Shown piece by piece: positions 35,686 to 53,309 of a stretch of 64,000 bases of DNA. Each line of letters opens with the position of its first letter. Positions within the stretch are counted from its first letter, which is position 1. Under the pieces are notes generated by a model. That model searched no databases, was not told where the DNA came from, and saw only the letters and a program-made list of their open reading frames with translations. The DNA comes from Escherichia coli (GTDB taxonomy: Bacteria > Pseudomonadota > Gammaproteobacteria > Enterobacterales > Enterobacteriaceae). The DNA lies in the NCBI RefSeq assembly GCF_022846255.1, contig NZ_AP025682.1. One strand, given 5' to 3'. Both the position numbers and the translations under genes were made by a program.

Positions 35686-37371
35686 ATGTTTAAAATTATG
35701 AATGCCCATAGTTTAGAGATGAGAAAAGAGTTAGGAGCATATTATACTCCAAGTGCTCTTAGTCAAGTGATGTCAGATTGGGCAATTAGAAGACCAACTG
35801 ATAAAATACTTGAGCCAAGTTTTGGAGGCTGTGGCTTTTTAGAAAGCTGTGAAAAGAGCCTCATGGAGATAGGCTGCATAAACCCAATGGAAAATTTATT
35901 TGGGGTTGATGTAGACCAAAAAGCCTTTGATACTCTCAAAAAAAAATATGGGCATTTATTAATAAAAAAACATTTCATTTTAAGTGATTTCATTAACGTA
36001 TTTCCAAAAGATTTTGGCATTGAAGATTTTGAGGTTATCATTGGGAACCCTCCTTATATCTCTATGCATAATATGAGTTATGAACAAAGGAAGTCCTGTG
36101 AAAAAGTTTTTGCTGACTCACCTTTTAAAACAAAAACATTAGGACGCAATGCAAGTCTTTGGGGGTTTTTCTTACTCCATGCATTAAGCTTCATTCGAGA
36201 AAATGGACGAATAGCGTGGGTATTACCGAGTAGTTTTTTAAATGCCTATTATGCGAAAGAGCTTATAAGAATTTACAAAAATCATTTTAACCATCTAAAA
36301 ATAATAAAGATAAATGAAAGACTTTTCAAAAATGAAGGTGCCGATGAAATGTCAGTACTTTTTTTATGCGATGAGTTTCACAGGACACCTATCAATAATG
36401 GATACGTTTCAATTGGATTTGCTGACACATTAAATGAACTAACCAGCATAATGACTGGAACTAAAGAAAACAAATTAAATAGCTCTGAAAATTACAAATA
36501 TAATATATTAGATATTGACACATTAAATGTGATATCGTCTATAACAGAACATAAGTACAGTTTAAAAATACAGGATATTGCTGATATAAAGATTGGGATG
36601 GTAACCGGCATGAACAACTTCTTTATATTGGATCAAAATCAAATTTTAAAACATAATTTAGACAATAAACATTTTAGACCAGTTATTTCACGATTTTCAC
36701 ATTTGAAGGGAATTCACCACACATTAAAAAGACATACGAAGTTAATTGCAGACAATAAAAAAGGATTGCTATTACACGTCAGTCCAGATGATTTATATGA
36801 AAAACATAGTCCGTTGAGAAAATATTTATCACAAGTTGATAGAAAAGAACGAGTCAAAAACCGCACATTCAAAAAACGAAAAAAGTGGTTTCAACCAGAT
36901 GATGGTATTTACCCAGACGCATTTTTTTCATATATGGTTCATGAGTTTCCCAGAATGATATTAAATAAAGGGAAAGTTAACTGCACTAACTCAATACATC
37001 GTATCTTTTTCAAAGATATAGCATCTAATAAATTAAAAAAAGCATGTTGCATATCTCTTTTATCAACATTTTCACAACTTTCTGCCGAACTTGAAGGTCG
37101 GTCATATGGCTCAGGTGTGCTAAAAATAGAGCCTACCGCAGGAAAGAACATATCATTCTTAATTAAAGATGATTTAATACACGAGTTAAGCAACTTAAGT
37201 AAAGAAATAGATCAATTGCTTTTAAATAATGAAACAAGCAATGCCACTGCTTTAGTTGATAAGTTTTTTGTTGATAAGGGACTAATTAGCTTAGATGAAT
37301 TGAAAAGTCTTAAAAAAGGGTTATTCAGATTAAGAAAAGATCGATATAAAGGGGTCAAAAATTATGAGTGA
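35686..37371 (+). CDS. N6-adenine DNA methyltransferase (Eco57I-like gamma-class) with C-terminal extension
   Basis: Motifs GAYYTP, ILEPSFGGCGFL (motif I-like) and IIGNPPYIS (motif IV, approx 36044-36060); 561 aa; first gene of a tightly overlapping four-gene operon. Confidence 0.8.
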   Translation: MFKIMNAHSLEMRKELGAYYTPSALSQVMSDWAIRRPTDKILEPSFGGCGFLESCEKSLMEIGCINPMENLFGVDVDQKAFDTLKKKYGHLLIKKHFILSDFINVFPKDFGIEDFEVIIGNPPYISMHNMSYEQRKSCEKVFADSPFKTKTLGRNASLWGFFLLHALSFIRENGRIAWVLPSSFLNAYYAKELIRIYKNHFNHLKIIKINERLFKNEGADEMSVLFLCDEFHRTPINNGYVSIGFADTLNELTSIMTGTKENKLNSSENYKYNILDIDTLNVISSITEHKYSLKIQDIADIKIGMVTGMNNFFILDQNQILKHNLDNKHFRPVISRFSHLKGIHHTLKRHTKLIADNKKGLLLHVSPDDLYEKHSPLRKYLSQVDRKERVKNRTFKKRKKWFQPDDGIYPDAFFSYMVHEFPRMILNKGKVNCTNSIHRIFFKDIASNKLKKACCISLLSTFSQLSAELEGRSYGSGVLKIEPTAGKNISFLIKDDLIHELSNLSKEIDQLLLNNETSNATALVDKFFVDKGLISLDELKSLKKGLFRLRKDRYKGVKNYE

Positions 37372-39673
37372 AGATATTCTTTTTTTGAAGGATAAGATGA
37401 AAGCCCTCCTGGATAATGAGGCTCTCGATTATGATAAAGTATTAGAAACAGCAGTAAAAATCACCGAAAAAGACAACAACAATATTAGATTTTCTGTAGA
37501 TGCGAATTTAGTTAGAAGATTAGGTGAGCAGTTAGTCGCTAAAAAAACTACTGCTGTCAGTGAATTGGTGAAAAATGCTTATGACGCAGATTCGACATTA
37601 GTAAATGTATATTTCGAATTGAACGAAGCAAATCCTCGAATAGTCATATTCGATGACGGCACAGGTATGTCAAAGGAAGATATTATCAATGGATTCATGC
37701 GAATAAGCACAAGTGAAAAAGAAGATAACTCTGTTTCAGAACGATATCAGAGACTAAGAGCAGGTAGAAAAGGTATTGGGCGTTTTTCTACACAGCGATT
37801 AGGAAATTATTTAAAAATAATTACCAAGCAAGAAAATGAAGAGTTAGGATATTTAATAGAAATTAACTGGCAGCAGTTTTCAAAAAAGAAAAATATATCC
37901 TTCATTGCTAACACTATCTCAAAAATCGATGTGGATTTCATTCATGGAACAAAAATAATAATAGAAGATCTGAATGATAAAGATTGGTCTGATGGGAACA
38001 TAAAAACGGCTTATAAATATATTAAGAGCATTATAAATATTGCCCCAAGCGAGACAGATCCAGGTTTCCAAGTAAAGTTCTATTATAAAAATGCCAATGG
38101 CTATGAATTAGTTGCAGATGAGAAAACTGAAATTTTTTCTGATAGTGATGCTCATATTACAGCAACACTTGAAAATGGAAATGCTGTAGTGAGAGTTAGC
38201 AGTGAAACCCTTGGCATAAAAAATGAAAGCATAGATGTATGGTATGATGAAAAAAATAACATACGAAAATTCTCACATATAAACTCTCCAGTAAAGCTTG
38301 ATGCATACTATTTCTCATTAGCAACAGTTAACTCCAGAAAACAAGCGGCATATTTACGTGAAAATGGCGGAATAAAAATCTATCGAAATGGATTCAAGGT
38401 TTCTCCTTATGGAGAGCAGTATGATGACTGGACGGCTCTTGATGACTCGGTTCGAAGGAGAAAGATATTACCCCCTCATGGTAATCAAAACTTCTTTGGA
38501 CACGTCAAAGTTGAAGACCTAAATGGAATAGACTTTGAAGAAACGTCCTCAAGGGAAGGTCTGATTCATACCGATGCCTTTCAAGAACTTCGCCTCTTTG
38601 TATATAAAGCACTGACGGCTGCGGTAATAAGAATTAGTGAAGCCAGAAATATAAAAATAAATCCAAATGACCGTAGCTATGTTAAAGAAACTAAACCAAC
38701 AATATCAGTCAAAGATAAATTAAATATTGTATCTGAAACGATAAGCTCGGTTAGTAAATTGGTAGATGCAGCAACATCTGTTGATGACGTTTCAAGTGAT
38801 GGTGTCATTAATAACATTGAAGATAAAAGTATAAGAAACAAAATTATTGAAGATCTCCATGAAGCCGCAGATGAGCTAAAACAAGCGAGTGTGATATCTC
38901 AATCTTTAATCGATGAAATTGAGCTTCTTAGAGTGCTTGGCGCTATGGGCCTTGCTATTGGTGAGTTTACACACGAAATAAATTTATCAATAACAAGTTT
39001 GAGTATTAACGTTCAAAACCTTAAACAGTCTAAATTATTAGAGGAAGATAGAGACTCTGCTCTAAATAGCCTTGAAAATAATATTGCAACATTAAAATCA
39101 TTTACTAAATTTTTTGACAGTACTATACGTGAGAATGTAAACAGAAATAAGAAAGTTATTGAGATAAGAGACTCTATTGAGCCATTTTATGAATCGATGA
39201 AACCAATAATAGAACGCAAAGGAATTCAGTTTGCAATACATTATGAAGGTTATGAACTTTTTACGAAGCCGATTCATGTTTCAGAGCTATATTCTGTATT
39301 TATAAATCTCTTTACGAATGCATATAAAGCAATACTTCGTTCTGGAACAAATCCACGAAAAATGTCTTTAACTGCGAAAAAAGATAGTGAAGATATAATT
39401 ATCCGATTCGAAGATAGCGGTGATGGAATTGAACCTGCAAATAGAGAAAGAGTTTTTGAGCCTTTCTATACAACAAGTACACCATCAGGACCTTTTGAAA
39501 GTGATGATTTATCATTAAAAGGAATGGGATTGGGGTTATCAATCGTACGTGATCTCGTTGAATCCATGTCTGCAGAAATATCTATAGTTGATGCATCCGA
39601 TGGTTTTACAACGTGCTTTGAGTTGAGAATTCCAAAAGCTGATGATAAGGAAATACCAGATGACATCTATTAA
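37364..39673 (+). CDS. Dual Bergerat-fold ATPase: N-terminal MutL/HSP90/MORC-like GHKL module plus C-terminal histidine-kinase core (HisKA-like H-box + HATPase_c)
   Basis: N-terminal motifs ELVKNAYDAD (approx 37562-37591), DDGTGMS, GRKGIGRF; C-terminal H-box GEFTHEINLSITSL (approx 38961-39000), N-box LFTNAYKAIL, G1 EDSGDGIE, F-box FEPFYTT, G2 GMGLGLSIV; no obvious TM segment; start overlaps MTase stop by 8 nt. Confidence 0.7.
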   Translation: MSEDILFLKDKMKALLDNEALDYDKVLETAVKITEKDNNNIRFSVDANLVRRLGEQLVAKKTTAVSELVKNAYDADSTLVNVYFELNEANPRIVIFDDGTGMSKEDIINGFMRISTSEKEDNSVSERYQRLRAGRKGIGRFSTQRLGNYLKIITKQENEELGYLIEINWQQFSKKKNISFIANTISKIDVDFIHGTKIIIEDLNDKDWSDGNIKTAYKYIKSIINIAPSETDPGFQVKFYYKNANGYELVADEKTEIFSDSDAHITATLENGNAVVRVSSETLGIKNESIDVWYDEKNNIRKFSHINSPVKLDAYYFSLATVNSRKQAAYLRENGGIKIYRNGFKVSPYGEQYDDWTALDDSVRRRKILPPHGNQNFFGHVKVEDLNGIDFEETSSREGLIHTDAFQELRLFVYKALTAAVIRISEARNIKINPNDRSYVKETKPTISVKDKLNIVSETISSVSKLVDAATSVDDVSSDGVINNIEDKSIRNKIIEDLHEAADELKQASVISQSLIDEIELLRVLGAMGLAIGEFTHEINLSITSLSINVQNLKQSKLLEEDRDSALNSLENNIATLKSFTKFFDSTIRENVNRNKKVIEIRDSIEPFYESMKPIIERKGIQFAIHYEGYELFTKPIHVSELYSVFINLFTNAYKAILRSGTNPRKMSLTAKKDSEDIIIRFEDSGDGIEPANRERVFEPFYTTSTPSGPFESDDLSLKGMGLGLSIVRDLVESMSAEISIVDASDGFTTCFELRIPKADDKEIPDDIY

Positions 39674-40763
39674 CCTACTTTATATCGATGATGATCAGCC
39701 TCAGCAAGTAAAGGGTTTAATTGAAGCAATAATCAGTAAAGCGAGTTTTGATTTAAATATAACTCATAAACCGCCGACGAAAATGAGTGAAATAGCCATA
39801 GAGTTGAGACAAGGTTATGATGGTATCATCATAGATCAAAAACTTGACAGCTTTGTTGAGGGAGTAGAACCAGTTGATTACTTTGGTGCCGCGTTAGCAC
39901 AAAATTTGCGAACACTCATGGCGGGTAAGTCAGATAATATATCTTATAAGCCAATAATTTTACTCTCTCTCGAAAGCTTATTAATTGAATATTATAATCC
40001 CGATTCAAGCTCGCATGATCTATTTGATTTAGTTTTGAGTAAAAGCATATTAGAACAACCAGAATTGTTAGAAAAAAAAGTTCACTTAATAAAATCTATT
40101 GTGAATGCTTACAAACGTGCACATTCGGAAGACTCGTTATATCAATTGCTTTCTCTGAGCAGTAATTATTCATTGCTTGATAAAAGATTTGAAATATATA
40201 TTTCTCAGTATGATAAAGATATACATAAGCTCGTCACATCCATACACTCCACACTTCTGAGAAGTAGTGGCATGTTAGTTTCTGAGATAACTTTGGCAAC
40301 CAGACTGGGTATTAATATTGAAGAATCGCCAGACTGGCACCAAGTAATTGGGCACCTTGAGGAATATAAATACAATGGCATATTCTCTGATTATTATAAA
40401 AGATGGTGGTGGGCAGATGTAGAGTTGTGGATAAATAAAAAGCTTAACTGCCCAATAATTAAAGGATTAACCTCAGAAAAAAGAGTGGAGATCATCAAAG
40501 AAAAACTTGGCTTAGAACGATTGATGCCAATTCATAGCGTACATCCAGGCCAAAGCACCAAGTTTTGGGTTAATTGTATCATCAGTAAAGAACCTCTTGA
40601 TACAATAGATGCTCTTCGTGCATCATCTATGGAATTAAAACCTTGGGAAGATGATAAATACCTTTCAATTAAAACAGTGTTAGAGAGACGGGCCGAAAAA
40701 TATAAAGTACATCCAGAAGATAGAACAAAATTGGATCGAATTCGGGCGAGGTTTAAATTATAA
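39642..40763 (+). CDS. Receiver (REC)-like domain protein with unassigned ~250-aa C-terminal domain
   Basis: CheY-like pattern: LLYIDDD (beta1, acidic pocket), GIIIDQKL (candidate phospho-acceptor Asp), KPIILLSLES (beta4 Ser); divergent REC, so call is tentative; overlaps kinase gene stop. Confidence 0.5.
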   Translation: MIRKYQMTSINLLYIDDDQPQQVKGLIEAIISKASFDLNITHKPPTKMSEIAIELRQGYDGIIIDQKLDSFVEGVEPVDYFGAALAQNLRTLMAGKSDNISYKPIILLSLESLLIEYYNPDSSSHDLFDLVLSKSILEQPELLEKKVHLIKSIVNAYKRAHSEDSLYQLLSLSSNYSLLDKRFEIYISQYDKDIHKLVTSIHSTLLRSSGMLVSEITLATRLGINIEESPDWHQVIGHLEEYKYNGIFSDYYKRWWWADVELWINKKLNCPIIKGLTSEKRVEIIKEKLGLERLMPIHSVHPGQSTKFWVNCIISKEPLDTIDALRASSMELKPWEDDKYLSIKTVLERRAEKYKVHPEDRTKLDRIRARFKL

Positions 40764-41506
40764 TGAACAATAATACAACTTTGTTAGACGATATGTGTAG
40801 GCTCAGGGACTTTTTATATGATAGCCGCATATGCCCAGATATTAATCCTCTCAACCGTTTAATCAGTAAACTTAATGCAAATCTCCACTCCGAAACAGGG
40901 GAGGACTTTGAATACTCTTTAGACGATTTAGTATTTTATCTTAGCGAAAAATCTGGAACAATTTGTCCGACCCAAATTACACCCAAAGAAAACCCTATTG
41001 AAATACATTTGGAACTTATATTAAAAAGTGAAGGCCCTTATGAATTTTCGAAGATTAAAGAACTTTCAGGGCAATTACGACTTAAAGCTGAGTGGATCAA
41101 TGACACAACAGAAAAAATTGAGATAAAAACATCACATAGTGCTTGGCATTTTGATTATCATGTTCCTCAAATGGGGGATGGCGTAAATTCATTTACTCAT
41201 CCTCAATTCCATTTACAAAATGGAGGAAACAGGCTGACTGATAATTTAAATGACTATGGAGAGTTAATGATTCTTGATGCTCCAAGACTACCTTTACCTC
41301 CTATGGATGTGATATTAGCCATTGACTTTATTATTTCAAATTTCTTTGGTTCTATTTGGCAACAAGCATTATGTGATTCAGAATACATTGATGTAGTTAA
41401 AAGAGCACAAAAAGCATGGTGGAAACCTTATTATGAAGGTATAAGTCAACACTGGTCTGGCAATGGCTCAGGAATATCCAATATCCTAATTCCAAACCTT
41501 CTGTAG
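40763..41506 (+). CDS. Hypothetical protein (247 aa), fourth gene of the operon; possible effector
   Basis: ATG overlaps preceding stop (ATAATG); His-rich segment HFDYHVPQMGDGVNSFTHPQFH; no confident motif. Confidence 0.6.
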   Translation: MNNNTTLLDDMCRLRDFLYDSRICPDINPLNRLISKLNANLHSETGEDFEYSLDDLVFYLSEKSGTICPTQITPKENPIEIHLELILKSEGPYEFSKIKELSGQLRLKAEWINDTTEKIEIKTSHSAWHFDYHVPQMGDGVNSFTHPQFHLQNGGNRLTDNLNDYGELMILDAPRLPLPPMDVILAIDFIISNFFGSIWQQALCDSEYIDVVKRAQKAWWKPYYEGISQHWSGNGSGISNILIPNLL

Positions 41507-41771
41507 TGTATCAAAATCTGTTAACCATCTCCAATTACGAATAGCAATATTTATATAAAACTAATTTTTTATTTTAAACAACTTCAGCAAGGGCTAACTC
41601 TCAGCATCTCCTTCGGTGATACTTTGAGTTGCTCCTTGTTTTTTCGCCCTTTGGTTGAAAAAATTAAAAGCAAAACCAACCCTATACATTGACTTTTTCA
41701 GCATCTATCATATAAATAAAATAAGCATAATGGACATGCTTATTTTACTTTACTATATGAAAGGAGTTCAT

Positions 41772-42185
41772 ATGAATGATAGGAATCATACTTTTAATAA
41801 GTTCGAGCCATTCAGAAGTTGTAGCTATGAAAATTTTACTTCTGCTAAAACACTCTCCCAGCAGACACGTTCTCATTGTATTAGTATCAGATTAAATGAT
41901 GCCGAGTTATCTTACGTTGATGGCTTACGAGAAGATCTCAACCGTGCTGTTTGGATACGTATGTCAGCATTGAATCGTCTCCCTTCCAAAATTCCTGAAA
42001 TAAATCTAATTGTCTGGAAAGACCTTGCCAAAGCATCTCAGAATCTGAATAACCTCGTTCAGCATCTCAACACTAAATCACACGATAGTCCTTTTACTAT
42101 CACCGAAATTTATACGGTACAAAAAAGAATAAAAGCACTAAGAGATGCCCTTCTGTCAGCAAATCGATCTGTCAGTGATAAATAA
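41772..42185 (+). CDS. MobC-like mobilization accessory protein
   Basis: Strong RBS aaggag 5 nt upstream of ATG 41772; small basic protein with ribbon-helix-helix-like segment (CISIRLNDAELSYVDGLRED); stop overlaps relaxase start (TAATG). Confidence 0.55.
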   Translation: MNDRNHTFNKFEPFRSCSYENFTSAKTLSQQTRSHCISIRLNDAELSYVDGLREDLNRAVWIRMSALNRLPSKIPEINLIVWKDLAKASQNLNNLVQHLNTKSHDSPFTITEIYTVQKRIKALRDALLSANRSVSDK

Positions 42186-44182: not shown

Positions 44183-44473
44183 ATGAAAAAAACCATGCTA
44201 CTATTATTAGCTTCAATGTCGCTGACAGGTTGCAACAGTGAACCATCCGATGCAGATATTTCAAAAGCCATGCAGAGCTTTATGAGTGAGATGCATGGTA
44301 CCCTGAACTCGTCTAAAAAACTTGCGTGTAAAGATATAGAGAGTGATGGCAGTTATCTCTGCTCTGTAGAGTTCGATGCTAAACTTCCAATCGTGGGCCA
44401 TAGAGAATCGACGCTAGAATTAAAGTTTATTAAATCCGATGACTCCTGGAAAGCAATGGCTCCATCTAAATAA
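44183..44473 (+). CDS. Small lipoprotein (96 aa)
   Basis: Signal peptide with lipobox (LLLASMSLTGC); 11 nt downstream of the membrane protein gene. Confidence 0.6.
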   Translation: MKKTMLLLLASMSLTGCNSEPSDADISKAMQSFMSEMHGTLNSSKKLACKDIESDGSYLCSVEFDAKLPIVGHRESTLELKFIKSDDSWKAMAPSK

Positions 44474-44566
44474 ACTTAATTATATTTGACAATAGAAAAA
44501 TAGTACGTCATAGATAGTAAATTGATAACAACCAGTGGGTTGAGCCACTGGCTGTTATCCCAATGG

Positions 44567-44644
44567 TTAATACACGGATGTACTAACCACCATTAAAAGG
44601 ATAAACAACATCACCTTTAATGCACGGGAGCGTTTTTTAGACAT
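44567..44644 (-). CDS. Unannotated 25-aa hydrophobic peptide (MSKKRSRALKVMLFILLMVVSTSVY); type I toxin-like small ORF
   Basis: Minus-strand ATG with GGAG 6 nt upstream; basic N-terminus then a single hydrophobic helix; a 14-bp imperfect hairpin (approx 44524-44558) lies just downstream. Below the ORF-track length cutoff. Confidence 0.3.
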   Translation of the reverse strand: MSKKRSRALKVMLFILLMVVSTSVY

Positions 44645-44730
44645 ACGCCACTCCTTCTTTTTCATCATCAACCTTATTGTTGGTGATGTTGCCTCTTTGG
44701 GCTGATGCAGATTATCATTTTAGAATACTA

Positions 44731-44756
44731 AAAGCATCCTTTCGGATGCTTTTTTT
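44731..44756. terminator. Bidirectional intrinsic terminator
   Basis: aaagcatcc-tttc-ggatgcttt hairpin flanked by an A-run upstream and T-run downstream, between convergent/adjacent transcription units. Confidence 0.6.
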
Positions 44757-44850
44757 CGCCTTGAAAATATTAGCAAGATAATAATCCATAAAGGATAATA
44801 TAAAAACCAAAATAATATGCTACGGTAGTTGTTATAAAAATCACATAAAA

Positions 44851-45273
44851 CTACAGTCCATATTTTTTCCTTTTATCCTTCATCAATAATTCTCTTTTTA
44901 GGGTAGAAGCCTCATGTTTCCTTCTCTCATTAATATAGACTTTTTCGGTTCTACTACCATTGCTCACAATGAAATTGATAAGTGAAGAGCATACGTTTTT
45001 CATACGCTCTTTATCGAGCATGTCATTTTCAATATTATTGATATTGCAGTAATAAGAAAGTAGTAAAAAATTCAACACTACTTCCCTGTTTGAGAACGTT
45101 AGTTTTTCTATTTCAGGCTGGTATTTAATGTAGAACCCGGCACAAAACAGGTATGATTGTTCGATAATTTGTTGCTCTGAGAAGTCTGATTCAGAGAGTT
45201 TATCAACGAATCGATCAAGTAGAAGAAGATACCTTTCCATCAAATGAATATTTATTTTTTCCATAACATGCAT
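44851..45273 (-). CDS. Hypothetical protein (140 aa)
   Basis: ORF in AT-rich island cargo downstream of the recombinase operon; no motif recognised. Confidence 0.5.
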   Translation of the reverse strand: MHVMEKINIHLMERYLLLLDRFVDKLSESDFSEQQIIEQSYLFCAGFYIKYQPEIEKLTFSNREVVLNFLLLSYYCNINNIENDMLDKERMKNVCSSLINFIVSNGSRTEKVYINERRKHEASTLKRELLMKDKRKKYGL

Positions 45274-45756: not shown

Positions 45757-47388
45757 TTATTCTCCTTTTTTTATTCTCTTATGGAATTCATACCATCTAT
45801 CAGCATTTATGTTCCCATCATTTTTATCATACAGTGTTCTTTTTGAAATTTTATCGTGAATTTTTGAAATCGTTTCGTTATCTAAACCAGAATTCTCAAT
45901 CGGATAATGTTCACACGGCTTAAACGCATATGAGTGCTTGCAGTAGCCATGTTTTGATACCAGTACTGCACCACTACTAAGTGAATCAAACTCATTAAGA
46001 ACCACCACTGGAATATCCTTTATTCTGTGCTCATTAACACACACTGATAACTTTTGTTCTCTTATTGCTTTAGACATTTGAAGATGCGATCTGTGGTCAT
46101 AAGAAAAATTTTGAGAAATAAGCTTACGTCCAGACCAGCGAGCAATACTAAACTCATCCATACCATTTATTTGAGCAAAAGTGTTGAGAAGATGCCTCAG
46201 TTGATGTGTTCTTAGCAAATATGGGCTACCATCATCATTTATATAACCATGTCTTTTAAATACATTTAAATATCCTTTTATATAATCAGAATCAACGATA
46301 TCAGTTTTAAAAAAATTCGTTGTAGGTCTGAATAACTTATCTAACATTTCCTTTTTATTTTGATTTAACTGTCCTTCAGTTAACAAGCAAAGCGCATTAG
46401 AATATTTGATTTTCTTCTCTCTATCATACCAAAAGAGATCTGGAGGTATATTTTCTTTAAGGGTTCCCATCGTTGAATTAGAGTAATTCTTTTGAATTTC
46501 AGCAGCCAATAATCTCGCTTGACTTGATAATTCTTTTAATCTGCTAATAGCCTTTTTTGCTACAGGTATCATTAAAGTTGGAATCCATTTTATATTGCCT
46601 TCATACCCTTTTGCTGAAAAAAATCTTAAACCGTATCTTTGAATGCCCTTTCCATCACATTCTGTAATTTCACAATCCACTGGCAAAGCTAAAATTTCCG
46701 ATATCCTACTCGGTGCACACATAAGTAAAGCAAGCACAGATGTAGTAAATATATCTCTTGACGATAATTGTTCATCCCGCTTTGAAAAAATCTCAGCAAT
46801 CGCAATAACTGATTTGATATCAGGCAATCTAGAATGGCCTTCCAGTGAAGAATCATAACCAGTCCAAGACTGAGTAATCCTATACCTAATTGGACTTATC
46901 CAAAATAAATAAGATGAGTTAGTCATCCTATTATCATTTAAAAATGAACTCAATTTCTCAAGTTCTTTCCCAATAGCAAATGCATGTGCTTTAGAATACT
47001 TTTCAGAGGCTATCCTTATGCATTCATCAAAGATTGAATTGTTGCAATAGTTTACATTAGCTTCCATATTGATTTTAAGTAAAACGAATTCGACAATCTT
47101 CAACATTGATAATGTTGAGTGTTTCGTCTTAGATTTATTGAATGAATGCACATGCAACATATATGCTTTAGCAAAATTAATAAAGCTATCATCTAAGCAT
47201 TCTTTGCTGTTTAGGTTGTTTTTTGAGTTAAACTTAGTAAACCTATATAAACCTTTCCATTTATTGCTTTCCCAAGAAGTTGTTAAATTATTATTAGAAA
47301 TAGTACTCTTACAAAACTCGATGAACTTAATAACATTATCGTGAGGGTTGTTTTTATTGCTTGGTTCAAAAATAAATATATTGTTCAT
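45757..47388 (-). CDS. Tyrosine recombinase (543 aa), third of three tandem recombinases
   Basis: Catalytic-region motifs PSRISEIL (box I Arg), HQLRHLLNT (HxxR), downstream Tyr region; 4-nt overlap with the upstream recombinase gene. Confidence 0.65.
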   Translation of the reverse strand: MNNIFIFEPSNKNNPHDNVIKFIEFCKSTISNNNLTTSWESNKWKGLYRFTKFNSKNNLNSKECLDDSFINFAKAYMLHVHSFNKSKTKHSTLSMLKIVEFVLLKINMEANVNYCNNSIFDECIRIASEKYSKAHAFAIGKELEKLSSFLNDNRMTNSSYLFWISPIRYRITQSWTGYDSSLEGHSRLPDIKSVIAIAEIFSKRDEQLSSRDIFTTSVLALLMCAPSRISEILALPVDCEITECDGKGIQRYGLRFFSAKGYEGNIKWIPTLMIPVAKKAISRLKELSSQARLLAAEIQKNYSNSTMGTLKENIPPDLFWYDREKKIKYSNALCLLTEGQLNQNKKEMLDKLFRPTTNFFKTDIVDSDYIKGYLNVFKRHGYINDDGSPYLLRTHQLRHLLNTFAQINGMDEFSIARWSGRKLISQNFSYDHRSHLQMSKAIREQKLSVCVNEHRIKDIPVVVLNEFDSLSSGAVLVSKHGYCKHSYAFKPCEHYPIENSGLDNETISKIHDKISKRTLYDKNDGNINADRWYEFHKRIKKGE

Positions 47389-48710
47389 AATGCTCTCCAG
47401 GGATTGAATTTTTTACACGTTAAGCATTTCAAATCCTCTTTCGTATCTTCTAATAAGAAAAATGCATCTGAAACATACTTGATAAAAAAGTTCTTGTTTT
47501 CTTCAATCTCTATGCCCATAAGTATATTAGATAAGGGGTTAAAAAACGCACTTAGTCTCTTATCGATGTCATAAACGTTGTCAGGATTGTTTTTTATATA
47601 TATCATAGAAGAGTTTACTGATTTATGATCTAAGGCTTTAGCAATCACCTCAATTGAGGCTCCTTCGTTAGCCAGTCGACTTCCTAACGTATATCTGAAT
47701 CTTCTAGCATTAAGTTCTATATAGCTGTTAGTCCTTTCTGACCTAACATCGAATTTTGACGGAAAGTGTTTTAATAGTTTTGACATAACTGAATTTTTCA
47801 TATGGAAAAAATCTGTTGTTAAATCAGATAAAAAATCCTCAATCCTTTTTGTTTCCGTAATCTTATCTAAATTCATGAAGATTGGTAATTCGCCTCTATA
47901 GTTATTAATCCCAACACTGAATTTATCTTCAACAAACGCCTGATTTTGATTAATTAGCATTGATAAACTGTCATATAAGAACGGTTCTATCATTACCATA
48001 TTAAATTCTTTTCTGAAACATTTTCTTTGTTTTACTTTTGGTACATTCAAAAAGCACCCTCTCTCATTTTTAATGAGATCTTTAGCTTTTAGAGATATCA
48101 ATTGTAATGGCCTTCTTCCTGTTATTGCCAGCAAAAGGATATAACAATACAAAAAGCATTGAATTTTCTTCTCATGATAAAATTTTCCAACGGCGTTAAT
48201 AATGTTATTGAATTCCGTTTCAGTTAAAGGTCCTTTATTTGGATCTCGTCTTTTAACTGCATCTCCTGTTTGGTTTGGAATGATTTTTATTTTCTCCAGC
48301 ATTCTAATGGCAGTCGCATCTACCCCAGGGTAATTGAGATTTTTCCATTTAGTGATGAAAGCCTTAATTGAGTTTAGTTTGTAGTTTCTTTCTGAACCTA
48401 AATAAACATTCAATTGATATATTGCTTTGTCATCAATAGTATCGATGGTCATTGCACCAAACCACTTATAAAATAGATTGTTAATATTTTGTATATAAAA
48501 AGAACTATATTCAGACGCATAGTAAGCTAATGTTTTTAAGTAGCTAAGTTTCATTTTTGTAGGCATTCTATCTACAACTTTATGAGGGTATACGCAGTTT
48601 TCTTTATCAAGTTGCCATTTCTTATCTGACAGTTTGAAACTATATCTATTCATCTTAGCAAAAAAAATTTGCTCACTTTCAATACATTTTATTTCCACAT
48701 TAAACCCCAC
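47385..48710 (-). CDS. Tyrosine recombinase (441 aa), second of three
   Basis: Motifs ITGRRPLQLISLK (box I Arg), RFRYTLGSRL and LDHKSVNSSMIY (box II); overlaps neighbours at both ends. Confidence 0.65.
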   Translation of the reverse strand: MGFNVEIKCIESEQIFFAKMNRYSFKLSDKKWQLDKENCVYPHKVVDRMPTKMKLSYLKTLAYYASEYSSFYIQNINNLFYKWFGAMTIDTIDDKAIYQLNVYLGSERNYKLNSIKAFITKWKNLNYPGVDATAIRMLEKIKIIPNQTGDAVKRRDPNKGPLTETEFNNIINAVGKFYHEKKIQCFLYCYILLLAITGRRPLQLISLKAKDLIKNERGCFLNVPKVKQRKCFRKEFNMVMIEPFLYDSLSMLINQNQAFVEDKFSVGINNYRGELPIFMNLDKITETKRIEDFLSDLTTDFFHMKNSVMSKLLKHFPSKFDVRSERTNSYIELNARRFRYTLGSRLANEGASIEVIAKALDHKSVNSSMIYIKNNPDNVYDIDKRLSAFFNPLSNILMGIEIEENKNFFIKYVSDAFFLLEDTKEDLKCLTCKKFNPWRAL

Positions 48711-49905
48711 TAATTATTTTACTTACTGATTTATAGACCTTTAGGACGACATCCTTCTCTTGTTGGGATATATATTTAAAATTGTATCTATTACACATGA
48801 TTGACTCCTTTGACCAACCCATTAGATAATTCCTTAAATCTTTCCTTCTACTATATTCTAATTCAGCGCCTTCAATTCCTTTAGAATACATATAATTCCA
48901 AGAGTGCCTTAACCTATGACCTGAAAGATTATATAGCTTTGGACTTGCTCGTTTCAGTGTTGATATCACCTTCTCATAAGCTGAAATGCTTAAGGGTTCT
49001 CCTGCGTTTTTTCCGGTGCAATGAGCCACGAATAAGAAATTATGTTTTTTCCTTTTTGTCATTTTTTCCCTGCTATTGCTTATGTAATCAAAAATTTCAC
49101 TGGCTAACTCATCAGATAACGGAATAACCCTTTCTCCAGTCTTTACTAATGGCTGATAAGCTCTTCCATCTTCTTTTGAATCATGTCTTCTGACTACACT
49201 TAAAGTGTTGTCTCTGAGATCAAAATCATCTATTTTAAGATTGAGCAACTCTCCAGCCCTTAAACCTAAATTTAAGAGCAAGGTAAATATTAGTCTGTTC
49301 CTGACCTGTACTTCCTTATGAAAAGGGTTTTCAATCCCACCAATTTCCAATAGACGGAAAAGCACATTGATCTCTTCTTCATTTAACGATTTTTCAGATA
49401 TTTCATTCATATTCAATGAACTGTTTCTTGGAATATGTGCTCTGATACTTTCAATAAATACTTCTACTTCATACTTTGCATGAATCCCCTTTGACGAATG
49501 AACTAATCCACATAACCACTTAAGGTAGCGTGAAAAAACGTGTACTCTATAACTAAAGGTTCTCTTTGCAATAAACCTATTACTTGCTGATTTTATATTT
49601 ATAATTTTTTGTCTATCGAATCTTTGTTTCGCATATCTTACCAGATCATCTATTTCTGCAACGCTGAGATACTTTTTAAGCTCAATTCTCTCAACTATAT
49701 TAATTTTCCTACTATCTAAGAAATTACTAAAAATTAGTAAGTTAGTTGCAACTATTTCCATAGTTGAGGCGGTTGCGCCTCTATTTCTTATGTCTGTAGT
49801 AAGAAATAGATTTTGATAGTAAGCTGGTAGATTACTATTTTTATCAAGGATCAGGCATCCTCGCTCCCCATTACTCATGATGAATTTCTTTACTTTATAT
49901 CCCAT
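48700..49905 (-). CDS. Tyrosine recombinase (401 aa), first of three
   Basis: Motifs LGLRAGELLNLKIDD (box I Arg), GHRLRHSW (HxxR), LMGWSKESIMCNRY (box II Tyr). Confidence 0.65.
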   Translation of the reverse strand: MGYKVKKFIMSNGERGCLILDKNSNLPAYYQNLFLTTDIRNRGATASTMEIVATNLLIFSNFLDSRKINIVERIELKKYLSVAEIDDLVRYAKQRFDRQKIINIKSASNRFIAKRTFSYRVHVFSRYLKWLCGLVHSSKGIHAKYEVEVFIESIRAHIPRNSSLNMNEISEKSLNEEEINVLFRLLEIGGIENPFHKEVQVRNRLIFTLLLNLGLRAGELLNLKIDDFDLRDNTLSVVRRHDSKEDGRAYQPLVKTGERVIPLSDELASEIFDYISNSREKMTKRKKHNFLFVAHCTGKNAGEPLSISAYEKVISTLKRASPKLYNLSGHRLRHSWNYMYSKGIEGAELEYSRRKDLRNYLMGWSKESIMCNRYNFKYISQQEKDVVLKVYKSVSKIISGV

Positions 49906-50029
49906 TTTGACCTCATTCTTTACAAATTAATATCACTCTCACTTATTAAATATATTCCAATTCAAAATAATTCAAATTTTTTACAATGGCTTTAGTTTAT
50001 TTGGTATATATATTAATGGCTTGAAAAAA

Positions 50030-50049
50030 TTTATTTGACGTCAAATAAA
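50030..50049. repeat. 20-bp perfect palindrome upstream of the recombinase trio
   Basis: tttatttgacgtcaaataaa centred on GACGTC, ~125 bp upstream of the first recombinase start codon. Confidence 0.5.
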
Positions 50050-50287
50050 CAGGTACGGCTAGTATTGAGTATCCATACCCGATATTAAGAAAACCATCTT
50101 CAACCCTTATAGCAAAAGCTCTGCTAGAAAAAAGGTAAAGAATTACGTCAAATATACTTATTTTTCAGATACAAACTTTACAAAGCCTCTTTTTTTTCAA
50201 AGCCACTAAGTAAACTCAAAAGATCTCTAAATTCCTTTTTCTTAATACATTATCAAAAGTTAAAAAATCCATGAAGCAGCATTCCTG

Positions 50288-50491
50288 TTAAGCGACATGC
50301 TTTCTTGAATTTTCGATAATTAATTGAATCCATTCATCGATTTCGCTTTCTACAAAAGCGGTAGCACGAATACCGATCTTTACTGGCTGTGGGAACCGAT
50401 TTTGGCTGATAAGACGATAGATCCACGCTTTACCAAATCCAGTTTTCTTCATGACTTCTGGTAAACGGATGAGACGAGCTTGATTTTCCAT
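50288..50491 (-). CDS. alpA: AlpA-family phage/island transcriptional regulator (excisionase-like HTH)
   Basis: MENQARLIRLPEVMKKTGFGKAWIYRLISQNRFPQPVKIG... typical AlpA HTH; RBS agga 7 nt upstream of ATG 50491 (the ORF-track start at 50575 is probably too long); adjacent to the integrase module. Confidence 0.75.
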   Translation of the reverse strand: MENQARLIRLPEVMKKTGFGKAWIYRLISQNRFPQPVKIGIRATAFVESEIDEWIQLIIENSRKHVA

Positions 50492-50611
50492 ATGTATGTC
50501 CTCTGTTGTGTCTACAGGGCTACAGTACAAATGAATTTCGAATGGATGAAGCGAGATTACGAACATCAGAGCCATCCCTGGCTCGAAACTATGAGTCTCT
50601 GGAGATTCATA

Positions 50612-51523
50612 TCACTCAGAGTCTGAGAGTTTCATAACATCCGAAACCCTCATTTCTTTAACATGCTGATTTTTATTGATAAAAAAGTTAAATTGCCTTA
50701 AAAAATCAATTTCTACAGTTTTCATTGCGAAAGGCCGATCAGCATCTCTTATATGATATCCTTGGCGAATCGCCTTATCATCATCTTCATCCGTGTATAG
50801 CAATCGAGATAATCTGTCGTCTGACAGAAGTAATTTTTTTCTTTCTGACCATGCGAGCAAATCAAGCATAGGGATAATTCGATAGCTAATTAATTTTTTT
50901 ATTGCCCCATAACCAAATCTGACTGCATCAAGTGGTGCAGGTTTAACGCCTTTTACTTTTCGCCATTGTGGTAATGATACTCGCAGGGCCTCAGCTATCT
51001 CATCATCGCTTCCACCCGCAAGATCGATTTCTAACATAATCGTAGTAGGAAACTGTTCAGGAATTTTTTCGGAAATATATTCATTTTCAATAGTGGAATC
51101 AATTTTATATTGTTCTGTATTTGCTCTAATGAATAAAGCCTTTCTCATACAATCAAAACTGATATTTGCTATTCGATCAACAGTAGTAATAAAAAAGTAT
51201 GGGGGTTGATATAATTTATTTTCGGCATCCATATAATTTAAGTGCTTCTCTTTGATAAGAAAAGGATCACCATCCAATATCTGCATATAATTTTTCAATA
51301 CTGTTTTCTGCATTCCTTCTTCTATTACTGGTTTGAAAAAATAGGTTCTCGCCCATATTTCATGGTAAAGCATATTAATAGAAATGTTTTCAAACCCTCG
51401 ATATTTGTCCAAATCAAACCACGTTTTCACTGCTTTGGTGTCTTCTGATGTCCAACTATTCATTTTTACCCAAGATTTCATTAATGCCACTCCGTTGTAA
51501 AAAGTTTTACTTCGTAATAGCAC
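50612..51523 (-). CDS. Hypothetical protein (303 aa) of the integrase-alpA module
   Basis: ORF between integrase and alpA on the same strand; no motif recognised. Confidence 0.55.
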   Translation of the reverse strand: MLLRSKTFYNGVALMKSWVKMNSWTSEDTKAVKTWFDLDKYRGFENISINMLYHEIWARTYFFKPVIEEGMQKTVLKNYMQILDGDPFLIKEKHLNYMDAENKLYQPPYFFITTVDRIANISFDCMRKALFIRANTEQYKIDSTIENEYISEKIPEQFPTTIMLEIDLAGGSDDEIAEALRVSLPQWRKVKGVKPAPLDAVRFGYGAIKKLISYRIIPMLDLLAWSERKKLLLSDDRLSRLLYTDEDDDKAIRQGYHIRDADRPFAMKTVEIDFLRQFNFFINKNQHVKEMRVSDVMKLSDSE

Positions 51524-51592
51524 ATAAATCGCAAATAAAAAAATGGCGTCTCAATTGGTTATTGAATACGCCATTTTACTCATAAAAATCAG

Positions 51593-52840
51593 TTAGTTAT
51601 TAAAATCAAAAGGTGCAATTCTTCTCTTAGTTGTTTCATCAAGATAATCAGCCCACCACTGCAACATCAACCTACGCTCATCCAAATGCTCAGCTTTATG
51701 AATGTATGCGGCACGAACGGAGTTCCGCTCCTGATGGCTCATCTGCCTCTCAACAGCATCTCTCGACCACTTTCCTGACTCGATCAAAGCACTACAAGCC
51801 ATCGCTCTAAAACCATGCCCACATACCTCAACGGTTGTGTCATAACCCATCGCCCTGAGCGCCTTGTTCACTGTGTTTTCGCTCATAGGTTTTCTGAAAT
51901 CATGATCGCCAATGAATACCAGGTCGCATTCGCCGCTGATTTCTCTGATGGCTTTTAGAAGTTCTAAAGCCTGACGACTTAACGGCACGAGGTGTGGGGT
52001 CTTCATTTTTGAACCTCGATGGGAATGTTTGACTCCTGGCAATAGCTCGCGTTCTCCAGGGATAGTCCACATCGCATTTTCAAAGTCGATCTCCGACCAT
52101 CTTGCGAATCGGAGTTCAATGGAACGGATAAAAATGAGCAATGTCAGCTTCACAGCTAATTTAGTAAGTTTCCTACCTTTAAAGCTTTCAATGCGCTCTA
52201 AAAGCTCTGAGAACCTATCAAATGGTAAGGCTGGTCTGTGGGTTCGTTTCGCAACTGTAATTGCCCCAGACATATCTTGTGCTGGATTGTAGTCAATTAA
52301 GCCATTCTGGACGGCATATCGCATTACTGCCGTAGTCCTTTGCTGTAGTCGGGAAGCAACTTCCAGTCGTCCAGAAGCTTCAACGGCCTTGATAGGGGCG
52401 ATAAGATCTCTGGTATTAAGCTCGGATATTTTTCTTTTACCAATAGCAGTAAAGAGACCATCCTCCATGCTTTTTAGAACTCTTTCGCTGTGAGAATCTG
52501 ACCATTTCCTTTTACAGGCAGTATGCCAGTCCCTTGCAACAGCTTCGAATGTCAGGGCTTCGCTTTGCTCAATCTTATCTGCTTTTTTCTTTTCAGAAGG
52601 ATCGATACCATCAGATACCAACTTTTTGGCTTCATCTCGCTTCCTGCGGGCTTCACCAAGAGAGACCATTGGATAAACACCCAATGCTAAAACTTTCTGT
52701 TTGCCCCCGAAACGGTATTGGAGTCGCCAGTACTTTGAACCATTGGGGTTGATCAGCAGGTGCATACCCTGCCCATCTGTGAGTTTGAAAGGTTTATCGG
52801 AGGGCTTTGTTGTTCGAACTTTGATATCAGTGAGTGCCAT
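51593..52840 (-). CDS. P4-type tyrosine integrase (intact)
   Basis: 415 aa; N-terminal GSKYWRLQYRFGGKQ and C-terminal catalytic region (HGFRAMACSAL, conserved Tyr region AAYIHKAE); starts 190 bp from the tRNA 3-prime end. Confidence 0.85.
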   Translation of the reverse strand: MALTDIKVRTTKPSDKPFKLTDGQGMHLLINPNGSKYWRLQYRFGGKQKVLALGVYPMVSLGEARRKRDEAKKLVSDGIDPSEKKKADKIEQSEALTFEAVARDWHTACKRKWSDSHSERVLKSMEDGLFTAIGKRKISELNTRDLIAPIKAVEASGRLEVASRLQQRTTAVMRYAVQNGLIDYNPAQDMSGAITVAKRTHRPALPFDRFSELLERIESFKGRKLTKLAVKLTLLIFIRSIELRFARWSEIDFENAMWTIPGERELLPGVKHSHRGSKMKTPHLVPLSRQALELLKAIREISGECDLVFIGDHDFRKPMSENTVNKALRAMGYDTTVEVCGHGFRAMACSALIESGKWSRDAVERQMSHQERNSVRAAYIHKAEHLDERRLMLQWWADYLDETTKRRIAPFDFNN

Positions 52841-53029
52841 CAGTTGATACCTCCATTGTTGGTACCAAAATCAATCGAACCGAGAATACCATCAGTTATA
52901 CCATCATCGGTTGGTATATGTTCAAGGAATTGAGTAGACGTGAACAGACTAAGCCAAGTCAGAAACTCGCTTAACTTACTGTTTTTTTGGACTAAAGTAG
53001 ACGTTAGTAGACTTGAAAAAAGCTTTGTA

Positions 53030-53114
53030 TGGTGCCGAAGGCCGGACTCGAACCGGCACGTATTTCTACGGTTGATTTTGAATCAACTGCGTCTACCGAT
53101 TTCGCCACTTCGGC
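53030..53114 (-). tRNA. leuX: tRNA-Leu (leuX-like, 85 nt with long variable arm)
   Basis: Acceptor stem GCCGAAG/CUUCGGC, T-arm GGTTCGAGTCC and 3-prime CCA read on the minus strand; sits between ahr and a P4-type integrase as at the K-12 leuX locus. Confidence 0.9.
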
Positions 53115-53309
53115 ACTGAAGAGGTATGCGGAAAACGTTGTGAATTATACCTGTCACGCGCCACCATGCAAGCGCCAGCTTGCTCGCACCTCGCTAAGTG
53201 CTGAAATTTTCAGCATTGCATACCGCGATGTGTAACCTTTGTCACACTCCAGGCACCCCGCCCTGCCATGCTCTACACTTCCCAGACCACACCAGAGAAG
53301 GACCAAAAA

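Follow-up and report, generated by a model that had tools for sequence, protein, structure and literature searches.

A candidate type I toxin–antitoxin cassette with Ibs/Sib-like architecture on a mobilizable island of Escherichia coli

Introduction

Does a spacer that genome annotation has left blank encode a toxin–antitoxin (TA) system? This question is raised by a locus on the chromosome of Escherichia coli (NCBI RefSeq assembly GCF_022846255.1, contig NZ_AP025682.1), which we analyzed within a stretch of 64,000 nucleotides, in the following termed the window. The window is identical to the chromosome of E. coli TUM11353 (NZ_CP134380.1), for which the Prokaryotic Genome Annotation Pipeline (PGAP) lists zero features between positions 44474 and 44850. 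The spacer is flanked by the stop codon of a lipoprotein gene at position 44473 and by that of a convergent gene encoding 140 residues at position 44851. Type I toxins nearly always escape annotation, since open reading frames (ORFs) this short are passed over by gene callers. An initial annotation, made from the sequence of the window, had proposed a 25-codon gene for a toxin-like hydrophobic peptide in this spacer, which it described as otherwise empty and as located just beyond a bidirectional terminator. Both parts of this description hold, as the spacer is devoid of PGAP features and a bidirectional terminator is located at 44730–44756.

Taken together, the comparison of diverged copies of this locus suggests, with a probability that we put at roughly 60%, that the spacer harbors a cassette representing a new and rare, island-borne family of type I TA systems with an Ibs/Sib-like architecture. 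The toxin-like interpretation given in the initial annotation is thereby supported to the extent that sequence comparison can address it.

Results

A short ORF is retained in diverged copies of the locus

The ORF is located on the minus strand at 44567–44644 and comprises 25 codons plus the stop codon (MSKKRSRALKVMLFILLMVVSTSVY), with the ATG at 44644–44642 and the TAA at 44569–44567. It is preceded by the Shine–Dalgarno (SD) sequence GGAG(UG) at 44649–44654 on the same strand: the GGAG at 44654–44651 is followed by the six bases TGGCGT and the ATG at 44644. Hence, the 25-codon ORF and the GGAG-N6-ATG start that had been claimed are both present on the minus strand at 44654–44567. An alternative, longer in-frame start exists in the window (MMKKKEWR...); it was rejected, as upstream in-frame stops close this frame (MMKKKEWRM...) in the group of variants represented by L002 and in type B, described below. 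Thus, the ATG at 44644 is the conserved start.

Variants were collected by using the neighboring lipoprotein as a handle for diverged islands, and by a DNA-box scan of one genome per species and of metagenome contigs. Eleven distinct variants were obtained, originating from Enterobacter, Klebsiella indica, Pectobacterium and metagenomes. Ten of them run through the ORF, while the eleventh (L046) is a short contig ending at the hairpin described below. An SD-led, hydrophobic ORF of 25–26 codons that terminates with a tyrosine codon followed by the stop is found at the same position in nine of these ten, and the tenth (L015) contains a frameshift of one nucleotide. The variants fall into two types. 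Type A comprises the peptide of the window and those of Klebsiella indica (L016, MNKKRSRALKV...), L047 (MNKNRSR...), L011 (MNKKRSRTLKVMLFIILMTVSTYVY), Enterobacter and others (L002, with the same sequence in L003, L004, L022 and L014; MFFKKHSFTLKVILFIALMSVSTYVY) and L009 (...TLYVILFITLM..., the same in L010). Type B comprises the peptides of L008 (MRNNHLNLLRIAIFISILLYSHPAY), L045 (MNNNLLFLLRIAIFISILMYSHSAY) and Pectobacterium carotovorum DSM 30168 (L020; MKNNHLQVLRMVIFISLLLYSSSLY).

Between the two types 35–43 of the 78 nucleotides of the ORF differ (up to 55%), whereas the ATG, an SD sequence 5–7 nucleotides upstream, the length, the hydrophobic core and the final tyrosine codon with its stop are kept. 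In simulations that introduced composition-matched random substitutions up to the observed level of divergence, an intact ORF was retained between the types in about 1% of the trials, and an equally hydrophobic intact ORF in a fraction of ≤0.001; within type B, the corresponding value was 0.005–0.007. Moreover, the other two reading frames contain stops in every variant examined, the fewest changes occur at second codon positions, and the sole length difference, which separates two type-A subgroups, amounts to one whole codon. Judged by this pattern of conservation, the ORF is very probably a genuine coding gene.

The peptides of the family are 25–26 residues in length and contain a single hydrophobic helix, the best 12-residue Kyte–Doolittle window reaching 2.6–2.9 in all variants. 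The residues M1, L9, F14, I15, S21 and Y25 are invariant, and the C-terminus conforms to the motif S[THS]x[VAL]Y. Of the peptide type proposed in the initial annotation, the single hydrophobic helix is confirmed, but the basic N-terminus is not a feature of the family, since the type B peptides begin with MRNNH.., MNNNL.. or MKNNH..; the only basic position common to all members is K/R at position 10. Two other coding assignments were rejected. Plus-strand ORFs across the region (MLPLWADADYHF... in the window; a 31-residue ORF, MAAS..., in L008 and L015) are not conserved between variants, and for a leader peptide or upstream ORF a downstream gene on the same strand is missing, the next gene being convergent.

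The ORF is framed by a conserved hairpin, a bidirectional terminator and two predicted promoters

Seven nucleotides past the stop codon of the ORF begins a hairpin (44524–44559) with arms at 44524–44538 and 44545–44559. The initial annotation, which reported an imperfect stem of 14 bp, was essentially right: the stem comprises 15 bp with one mismatch and encloses a loop of six nucleotides. Throughout the family the stem is conserved or compensated, and the loop is hypervariable. Between types A and B the stem sequence is wholly replaced with the pairing retained, and within type B one G-C pair is exchanged for A-U. The imperfect stem position is an A.C on the plus strand, which corresponds to a G.U on the mRNA strand, in six of six type-A variants, and the location of this G.U pair moves by one between the type-A subgroups. 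Such strand asymmetry speaks for selection acting on the minus-strand RNA instead of a palindrome in the DNA. In the predicted transcripts, the hairpin would close the peptide mRNA as its 3′ stem-loop and open an antisense RNA as its 5′ stem-loop.

On the other side of the ORF, the bidirectional intrinsic terminator (44730–44756; A4-GCATCC-TTTC-GGATGC-T7) presents T7 on one side and A4 on the other. It would stop the antisense RNA and read-through from the mob operon on the plus strand as well as the gene encoding 140 residues on the minus strand. One of its pairs covaries, being C-G in five variants and U-A in four.

The SD sequence is predicted to be paired in all nine folded variants, with most per-base probabilities between 0.8 and 1.0; the weakest pairing is found in L020, where the two leading SD bases reach 0.3–0.5. 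The predicted partner in type A is codons 5–6, in the window the segment CGCUCC at 44627–44632 on the minus strand, which would pair with GGAGUG at a probability of 0.92–0.99. In the L002 group this segment reads CACUCC, which turns a U.G pair into U-A. In type B the SD sequence would be held by another stem, around the start codon.

The plus strand contains a candidate promoter for an antisense RNA. The predicted −35 element TTGACA (44486–44491) is part of ATATTTGACAA, which directly follows the stop codon of the lipoprotein gene and is identical in all variants, including between types with a divergence of about 50% elsewhere. The candidate −10 element TAGATA (44511–44516) overlaps a second invariant block, GTACGTCATA (44503–44512; together 44503–44516), at a spacing of 18–19 nucleotides. 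In type B the candidate −10 reads TATATT, TAAGTT or TAAGAT, the general form being TAnnn(T/A). The first base of the hairpin lies about seven nucleotides past this element. Thus, the plus-strand antisense promoter that the initial annotation had envisaged is partly borne out, in that an invariant TTGACA box was found, paired with a poor −10 (TAGATA, 19-nucleotide spacer). As a separate observation, GTACGTCATA is invariant in both types despite lying in the spacer and −10 region, which is usually free to vary; it has a single occurrence in the window and is missing from L005, which lacks the cassette. It might be the binding site of a regulator.

The candidate cis-antisense (antitoxin) RNA predicted from these elements would comprise about 233 nucleotides (44524–44756, plus strand), consisting of the 5′ hairpin, the complement of the ORF, the SD sequence and the 5′-UTR, and the terminator. 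Read-through from the mob operon would yield the same antisense sequence, because the hairpin is not followed by a U-tract on the plus strand. For the peptide mRNA, an extended −10 element, TGATAATCT (TG-A-TAATCT), is predicted on the minus strand at 44709–44717, just inside the terminator. Other type-A variants contain TGGTAATCT and type B variants TG(C/T)TACTAT in the same place. The mRNA would start near 44702–44704 and span about 190 nucleotides (44515–44704), both ends being estimates. Both promoters are predictions that derive from conservation. The two predicted RNAs are much more stably folded than shuffled controls, at z-scores of −7.0 for the peptide mRNA and −6.8 for the antisense RNA.

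Substitutions cluster in the loops of the hairpin and the terminator

We further observed that substitutions cluster in the loops of both hairpins (window positions 44539–44544 and 44740–44743, and the equivalent positions in L002, L009, L011, L014, L015 and L020), while the stems are fixed. When L002 and L014 are compared, four of seven loop columns differ versus three of 288 elsewhere, two of these three being located in the terminator loop (Fisher P 4e-6). In addition, the hairpin loops TTCGCG of L002 and CGCGAA of L011 and L020 are reverse complements of each other, as are the terminator loops TTTC of the window and GAAA of L015. Such patterns may stem either from diversifying selection on kissing-loop specificity or from mutational flipping at palindromes.

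The cassette is optional and rare

The cassette extends over about 317 bp (44479–44795), with a right boundary that is approximate, as the alignment is AT-rich there. The window and most of the related islands contain it. L005 (Escherichia sp. DSM 109009) and L007 cleanly lack it and keep the flanking genes. Thus, the cassette is an optional insert in this island family. In its place, L005 (4286–4344) and L007 (2329–2387) contain a 59-bp spacer with a different hairpin, AAACCAT...ATGGTTT.

Several copies are atypical. L045 (1186–1390) is a mosaic, with a type-A-like lipoprotein flank (ACTTAATTATATTTGACAATAG...), a type B hairpin and ORF, and TGA instead of TAA as the stop codon. The mosaic suggests that modules of the cassette are swapped between island backbones. 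Three copies appear to be inactivated, L015 (approximately 2880–2960) by an extra A in the A-run after the ATG, which results in MKK-stop, L047 (reverse strand, past the lipoprotein gene) by the change of the SD sequence from GGAG to TGAG, and L032 by the lack of the 5′ half of the ORF and of its promoter; the latter is a low-coverage contig that may be chimeric.

Carriers are scarce, with one among 5426 complete E. coli genomes, two true matches among 100,044 species genomes and two in the metagenome scan. They include E. coli TUM11353, Enterobacter hormaechei GCA_002976855.1 and the type strain P. carotovorum DSM 30168. Among 15 billion predicted proteins, the peptide is represented only by a single cluster of three calls with wrong starts (32, 32 and 56 residues), one of them named 'uncharacterised protein' (Enterobacter hormaechei) and another 'hypothetical protein'. 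An exhaustive HMMER search with the 33-residue form against 1.84 billion representatives returned nothing beyond the ORF itself, tblastn and blastn searches against plasmids revealed no copy, a scan of viral contigs gave two chance matches only, and a literature search with substrings of the peptide yielded nothing relevant.

The C-terminal half of the peptide resembles the Ibs toxins

When the family was aligned by hhalign with the five Ibs peptides of E. coli K-12, a probability of 85.5% was obtained (E 5.7e-6), residues 11–25 being placed on Ibs residues 5–19. The matched positions include S21 with S15 and Y25 with Y19. None of 400 column-shuffled Ibs profiles reached the real score of 21.3 (mean of the shuffles 9.8, maximum 19.2), and ShoB, TisB, ZorO, LdrD, DinQ and Fst, which served as controls, scored nothing against the family. 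It has been reported that the toxicity of IbsC requires its C-terminal residues and hydrophobic center, whereas the N-terminus is dispensable (PMC8309996). The region required is the one that aligns with the cassette peptide.

The cassette resides in a mobilizable island at tRNA-Leu

The host island of about 28 kb extends from a truncated nanS gene (at about 24.6 kb of the window) to tRNA-Leu (53031–53115). Its defense cargo comprises a type I restriction–modification system, AbiEii, and a methylase with an ATPase. The mob operon encodes a 137-residue protein, a relaxase, a DUF4755 protein and the 96-residue lipoprotein, and the island in addition contains several tyrosine recombinases.

Three further regions of the island deserve mention. 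Between the type I restriction–modification and the mob genes, a four-gene block (35686–41506) is annotated with an N-6 DNA methylase, a 2310-bp gene for a 'sensor histidine kinase' and two genes for hypothetical proteins. It looks like an uncharacterized defense-type cargo operon of the island, and relatives contain other cargo in its place, namely an Eco57I-like methylase (L009), ThiF/JAB (L002), a reverse transcriptase (L003) or an AAA ATPase (L014). Directly upstream of the mobC-like gene (41772–42185), a cluster of inverted repeats (41629–41763) is conserved by 73–99% in all related islands, the cassette-less L005 included; it is likely the origin of transfer (oriT) and promoter region of the mob operon. 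Finally, the recombination genes at 45757–52841 encode a 543-residue 'DNA-binding protein' and two neighboring tyrosine recombinases whose genes overlap by their stop and start codons, and a third integrase of this run adjoins tRNA-Leu. Possibly, the island is composed of two elements that inserted in tandem at leuX.

Discussion

A proposed mode of action

We propose that the extended −10 promoter (TGATAATCT, 44717–44709) would direct the synthesis of the minus-strand mRNA of about 190 nucleotides, in which the SD sequence would be locked in a local stem with codons 5–6 and the 3′ end would be formed by the stable hairpin. Once translated, this mRNA would give rise to a single-helix membrane peptide of 25 residues with an Ibs-like C-terminal half (S-x3-Y-stop), which at high levels would be expected to depolarize or otherwise poison the inner membrane. 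The opposing promoter with its perfect TTGACA would generate the RNA of about 233 nucleotides from the hairpin to the bidirectional terminator, complementary to the ORF, the SD sequence and the 5′-UTR, with a further contribution from transcripts that read through from the mob operon. Base pairing between the mRNA and its antisense RNA would prevent translation, elicit cleavage, or both. Upon loss of the island the labile RNA would disappear first, and the cells would be killed or arrested; the cassette would thereby stabilize the mobilizable island at tRNA-Leu. A role in abortive phage defense is possible as well. The transcripts and their ends, the toxicity, the repression by RNA and the stabilizing role are what we infer from the sequences compared here, and the term toxin derives from the architecture together with a weak Ibs similarity.

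Beyond this proposal, the cassette could be the first relative of Ibs/Sib, a repeat family hitherto considered strictly chromosomal and inherited vertically, to be borne by a mobile element, with the hypervariable loops acting as kissing-loop specificity determinants, such that the modules of different island variants would not cross-react, since a loop change in a cis-antisense pair keeps the cognate match and breaks cross-recognition. This is a conjecture that we regard as doubtful.

Evaluation of alternative explanations

A number of results weigh against the assignment of the cassette to a type I TA system of the Ibs/Sib kind. The Pfam model Ibs_toxin (PF13956) matched none of five family peptides at E≤10, while a tandem IbsC control reached 78 bits (E 4e-22). 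Searches of NCBIfam gave no Ibs match, the best being a sub-threshold one to YjcZ 'tiny_TM_bacill' (E 0.011), which is compositional. In Rfam, three variants searched at permissive thresholds yielded sub-threshold terminator-like matches only, with no Sib at E≤10 and no other antitoxin RNA, and an nhmmer profile of the five K-12 sib loci found nothing in nine variants. The likeness to Ibs is specific but weak, as it rests on 15 hydrophobic columns. The cassette peptide, with 25–26 residues, is longer than Ibs with 18–19 and bears an N-terminal extension of 6–7 polar or basic residues, and the predicted antisense RNA of about 233 nucleotides exceeds Sib (about 140 nucleotides) by about 90. In type A, the antisense −10 is weak, as TAGATA lacks the final T and follows a 19-nucleotide spacer, and a strict consensus scan called neither the antisense nor the peptide-mRNA promoter. 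The excess of synonymous changes in the ORF is not significant; the ORF is short, and codon tests are confounded by the overlapping antisense RNA. The fold z-scores against shuffled sequences, −7.0 for the peptide mRNA and −6.8 for the antisense RNA, are not independent, as the strands are complementary. Moreover, the family is rare, and the comparative sample is small and stems from one island family.

Three other explanations have to be considered. As coding evidence alone does not imply toxicity, and many single-helix proteins of 20–30 residues in E. coli are regulators rather than toxins, the ORF might encode a real translated small membrane protein that modulates a membrane complex or the transfer of the island, with antisense transcription, in keeping with its weak −10, being incidental read-through from the convergent mob operon. 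We consider this unlikely, because the invariant TTGACA is placed exactly for an RNA start at the hairpin, the overlap with the ORF and the SD sequence is complete, the SD sequence is sequestered in all folded variants and the Ibs match is specific; in addition, inactivated copies exist and the cassette behaves as a present-or-absent unit. All of these features are typical of type I toxin loci and would not be needed by a benign small protein. If no peptide were made at all, the locus could be a conserved RNA or terminator structure that ends two convergent operons, possibly with a plus-strand small RNA, and the ORF a by-product of a T-rich strand. Such an explanation would account for the strong structure predicted on both strands, the insignificant synonymous excess, the lack of a matching protein family and the outcome of the exhaustive protein search, which recovered nothing but the ORF, in a single call of 32 residues labeled 'uncharacterised protein'. 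It is quite unlikely in view of the composition-matched simulations (P≤0.001 for an intact hydrophobic ORF between types), the retention of start, stop, SD sequence and length at a nucleotide difference of 55%, the closure of the other frames in all variants examined and the indel of a whole codon between the type-A subgroups; relatives in databases would be expected to be absent, as gene callers skip ORFs of less than 30 codons.

The third explanation concerns the DNA itself. The inverted repeat lies 11–15 nucleotides from the strictly conserved block GTACGTCATA and beside a relaxase operon, and covarying arms of inverted repeats are also expected of oriT hairpins, so that both elements could form a recombination site, or an oriT used by the neighboring relaxase, instead of an RNA system. 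We judge this to be highly improbable. L005 and L007 keep the genes for the relaxase, the DUF4755 protein and the lipoprotein without the cassette, L005 is devoid of any GTACGTCATA, and the separate inverted repeats at 41629–41763, present in all islands including L005, occupy the usual position of an oriT upstream of the mob genes. Moreover, the imperfect stem position, a G.U on the mRNA strand only, is a mismatch in DNA, and the conserved ORF and SD sequence would be left without explanation.

Significance

Should the cassette function as a type I TA system, it would represent a new toxin/antisense family for Enterobacterales, assign a stabilizing function to the poorly understood mobilizable islands at tRNA-Leu with their defense cargo, and possibly connect plasmid-style addiction modules with the chromosomal Ibs/Sib repeats in evolutionary terms. 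The natural variants with identical stems and different loops constitute a test set for the discrimination of cognate and non-cognate partners by cis-antisense RNAs. If the peptide is non-toxic, the locus is still a conserved, unannotated gene for a small membrane protein. Either way the advance is incremental, namely a new family of a well-known kind, and concerns mainly researchers working on TA systems, small proteins and mobile elements.

Comparison with known type I systems

The predicted cassette shares with hok/sok and related plasmid systems the location on a mobile element with a presumed stabilizing role, a structured toxin mRNA in which the SD sequence is sequestered and a stem-loop forms the 3′ end, and an antisense RNA encoded in cis that bears a recognition hairpin. 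In contrast to hok/sok, the cassette has no mok-like overlapping reading frame; Sok spans the leader region only and not the ORF, and Hok comprises about 50 residues with a periplasmic domain. The cassette peptide gave no match to Hok/Gef in Pfam or NCBIfam. With Zor/Orz, ShoB/OhsC, TisB/IstR-1 and DinQ/AgrB it has in common a small single-helix toxin candidate and a structured 5′-UTR hiding the SD sequence.

The closest parallel is provided by Ibs/Sib, which has been singled out as the only system with an antisense RNA over the whole ORF and the initiation region (PMC2943612; PMC8594479). Both systems would combine a tiny hydrophobic peptide with the terminal sequence S-x3-Y-stop and an antisense RNA that covers the ORF and the SD sequence (here predicted at 44524–44756 over 44567–44654), and the order of elements is the same as in the annotated sibA-E/ibsA-E loci: a TTGACA promoter, a 5′ hairpin, the complement of the ORF from stop to start, an anti-SD and a terminator. 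Their C-terminal motifs differ, SFxAY in Ibs versus S[THS]x[VAL]Y in the cassette family. The predicted cassette antisense RNA passes the SD sequence by about 75 nucleotides and its terminator is located upstream of the mRNA promoter, whereas Sib lies inside the ibs mRNA. Ibs/Sib is a duplicated locus of the core chromosome, for which a link to mobile elements has not been reported (PMC2887945), whereas the cassette is present in a single copy on a mobilizable island. Taken together, this comparison suggests that the cassette probably works like Ibs/Sib and may be its distant kin, standing beside this family rather than being a member of it.

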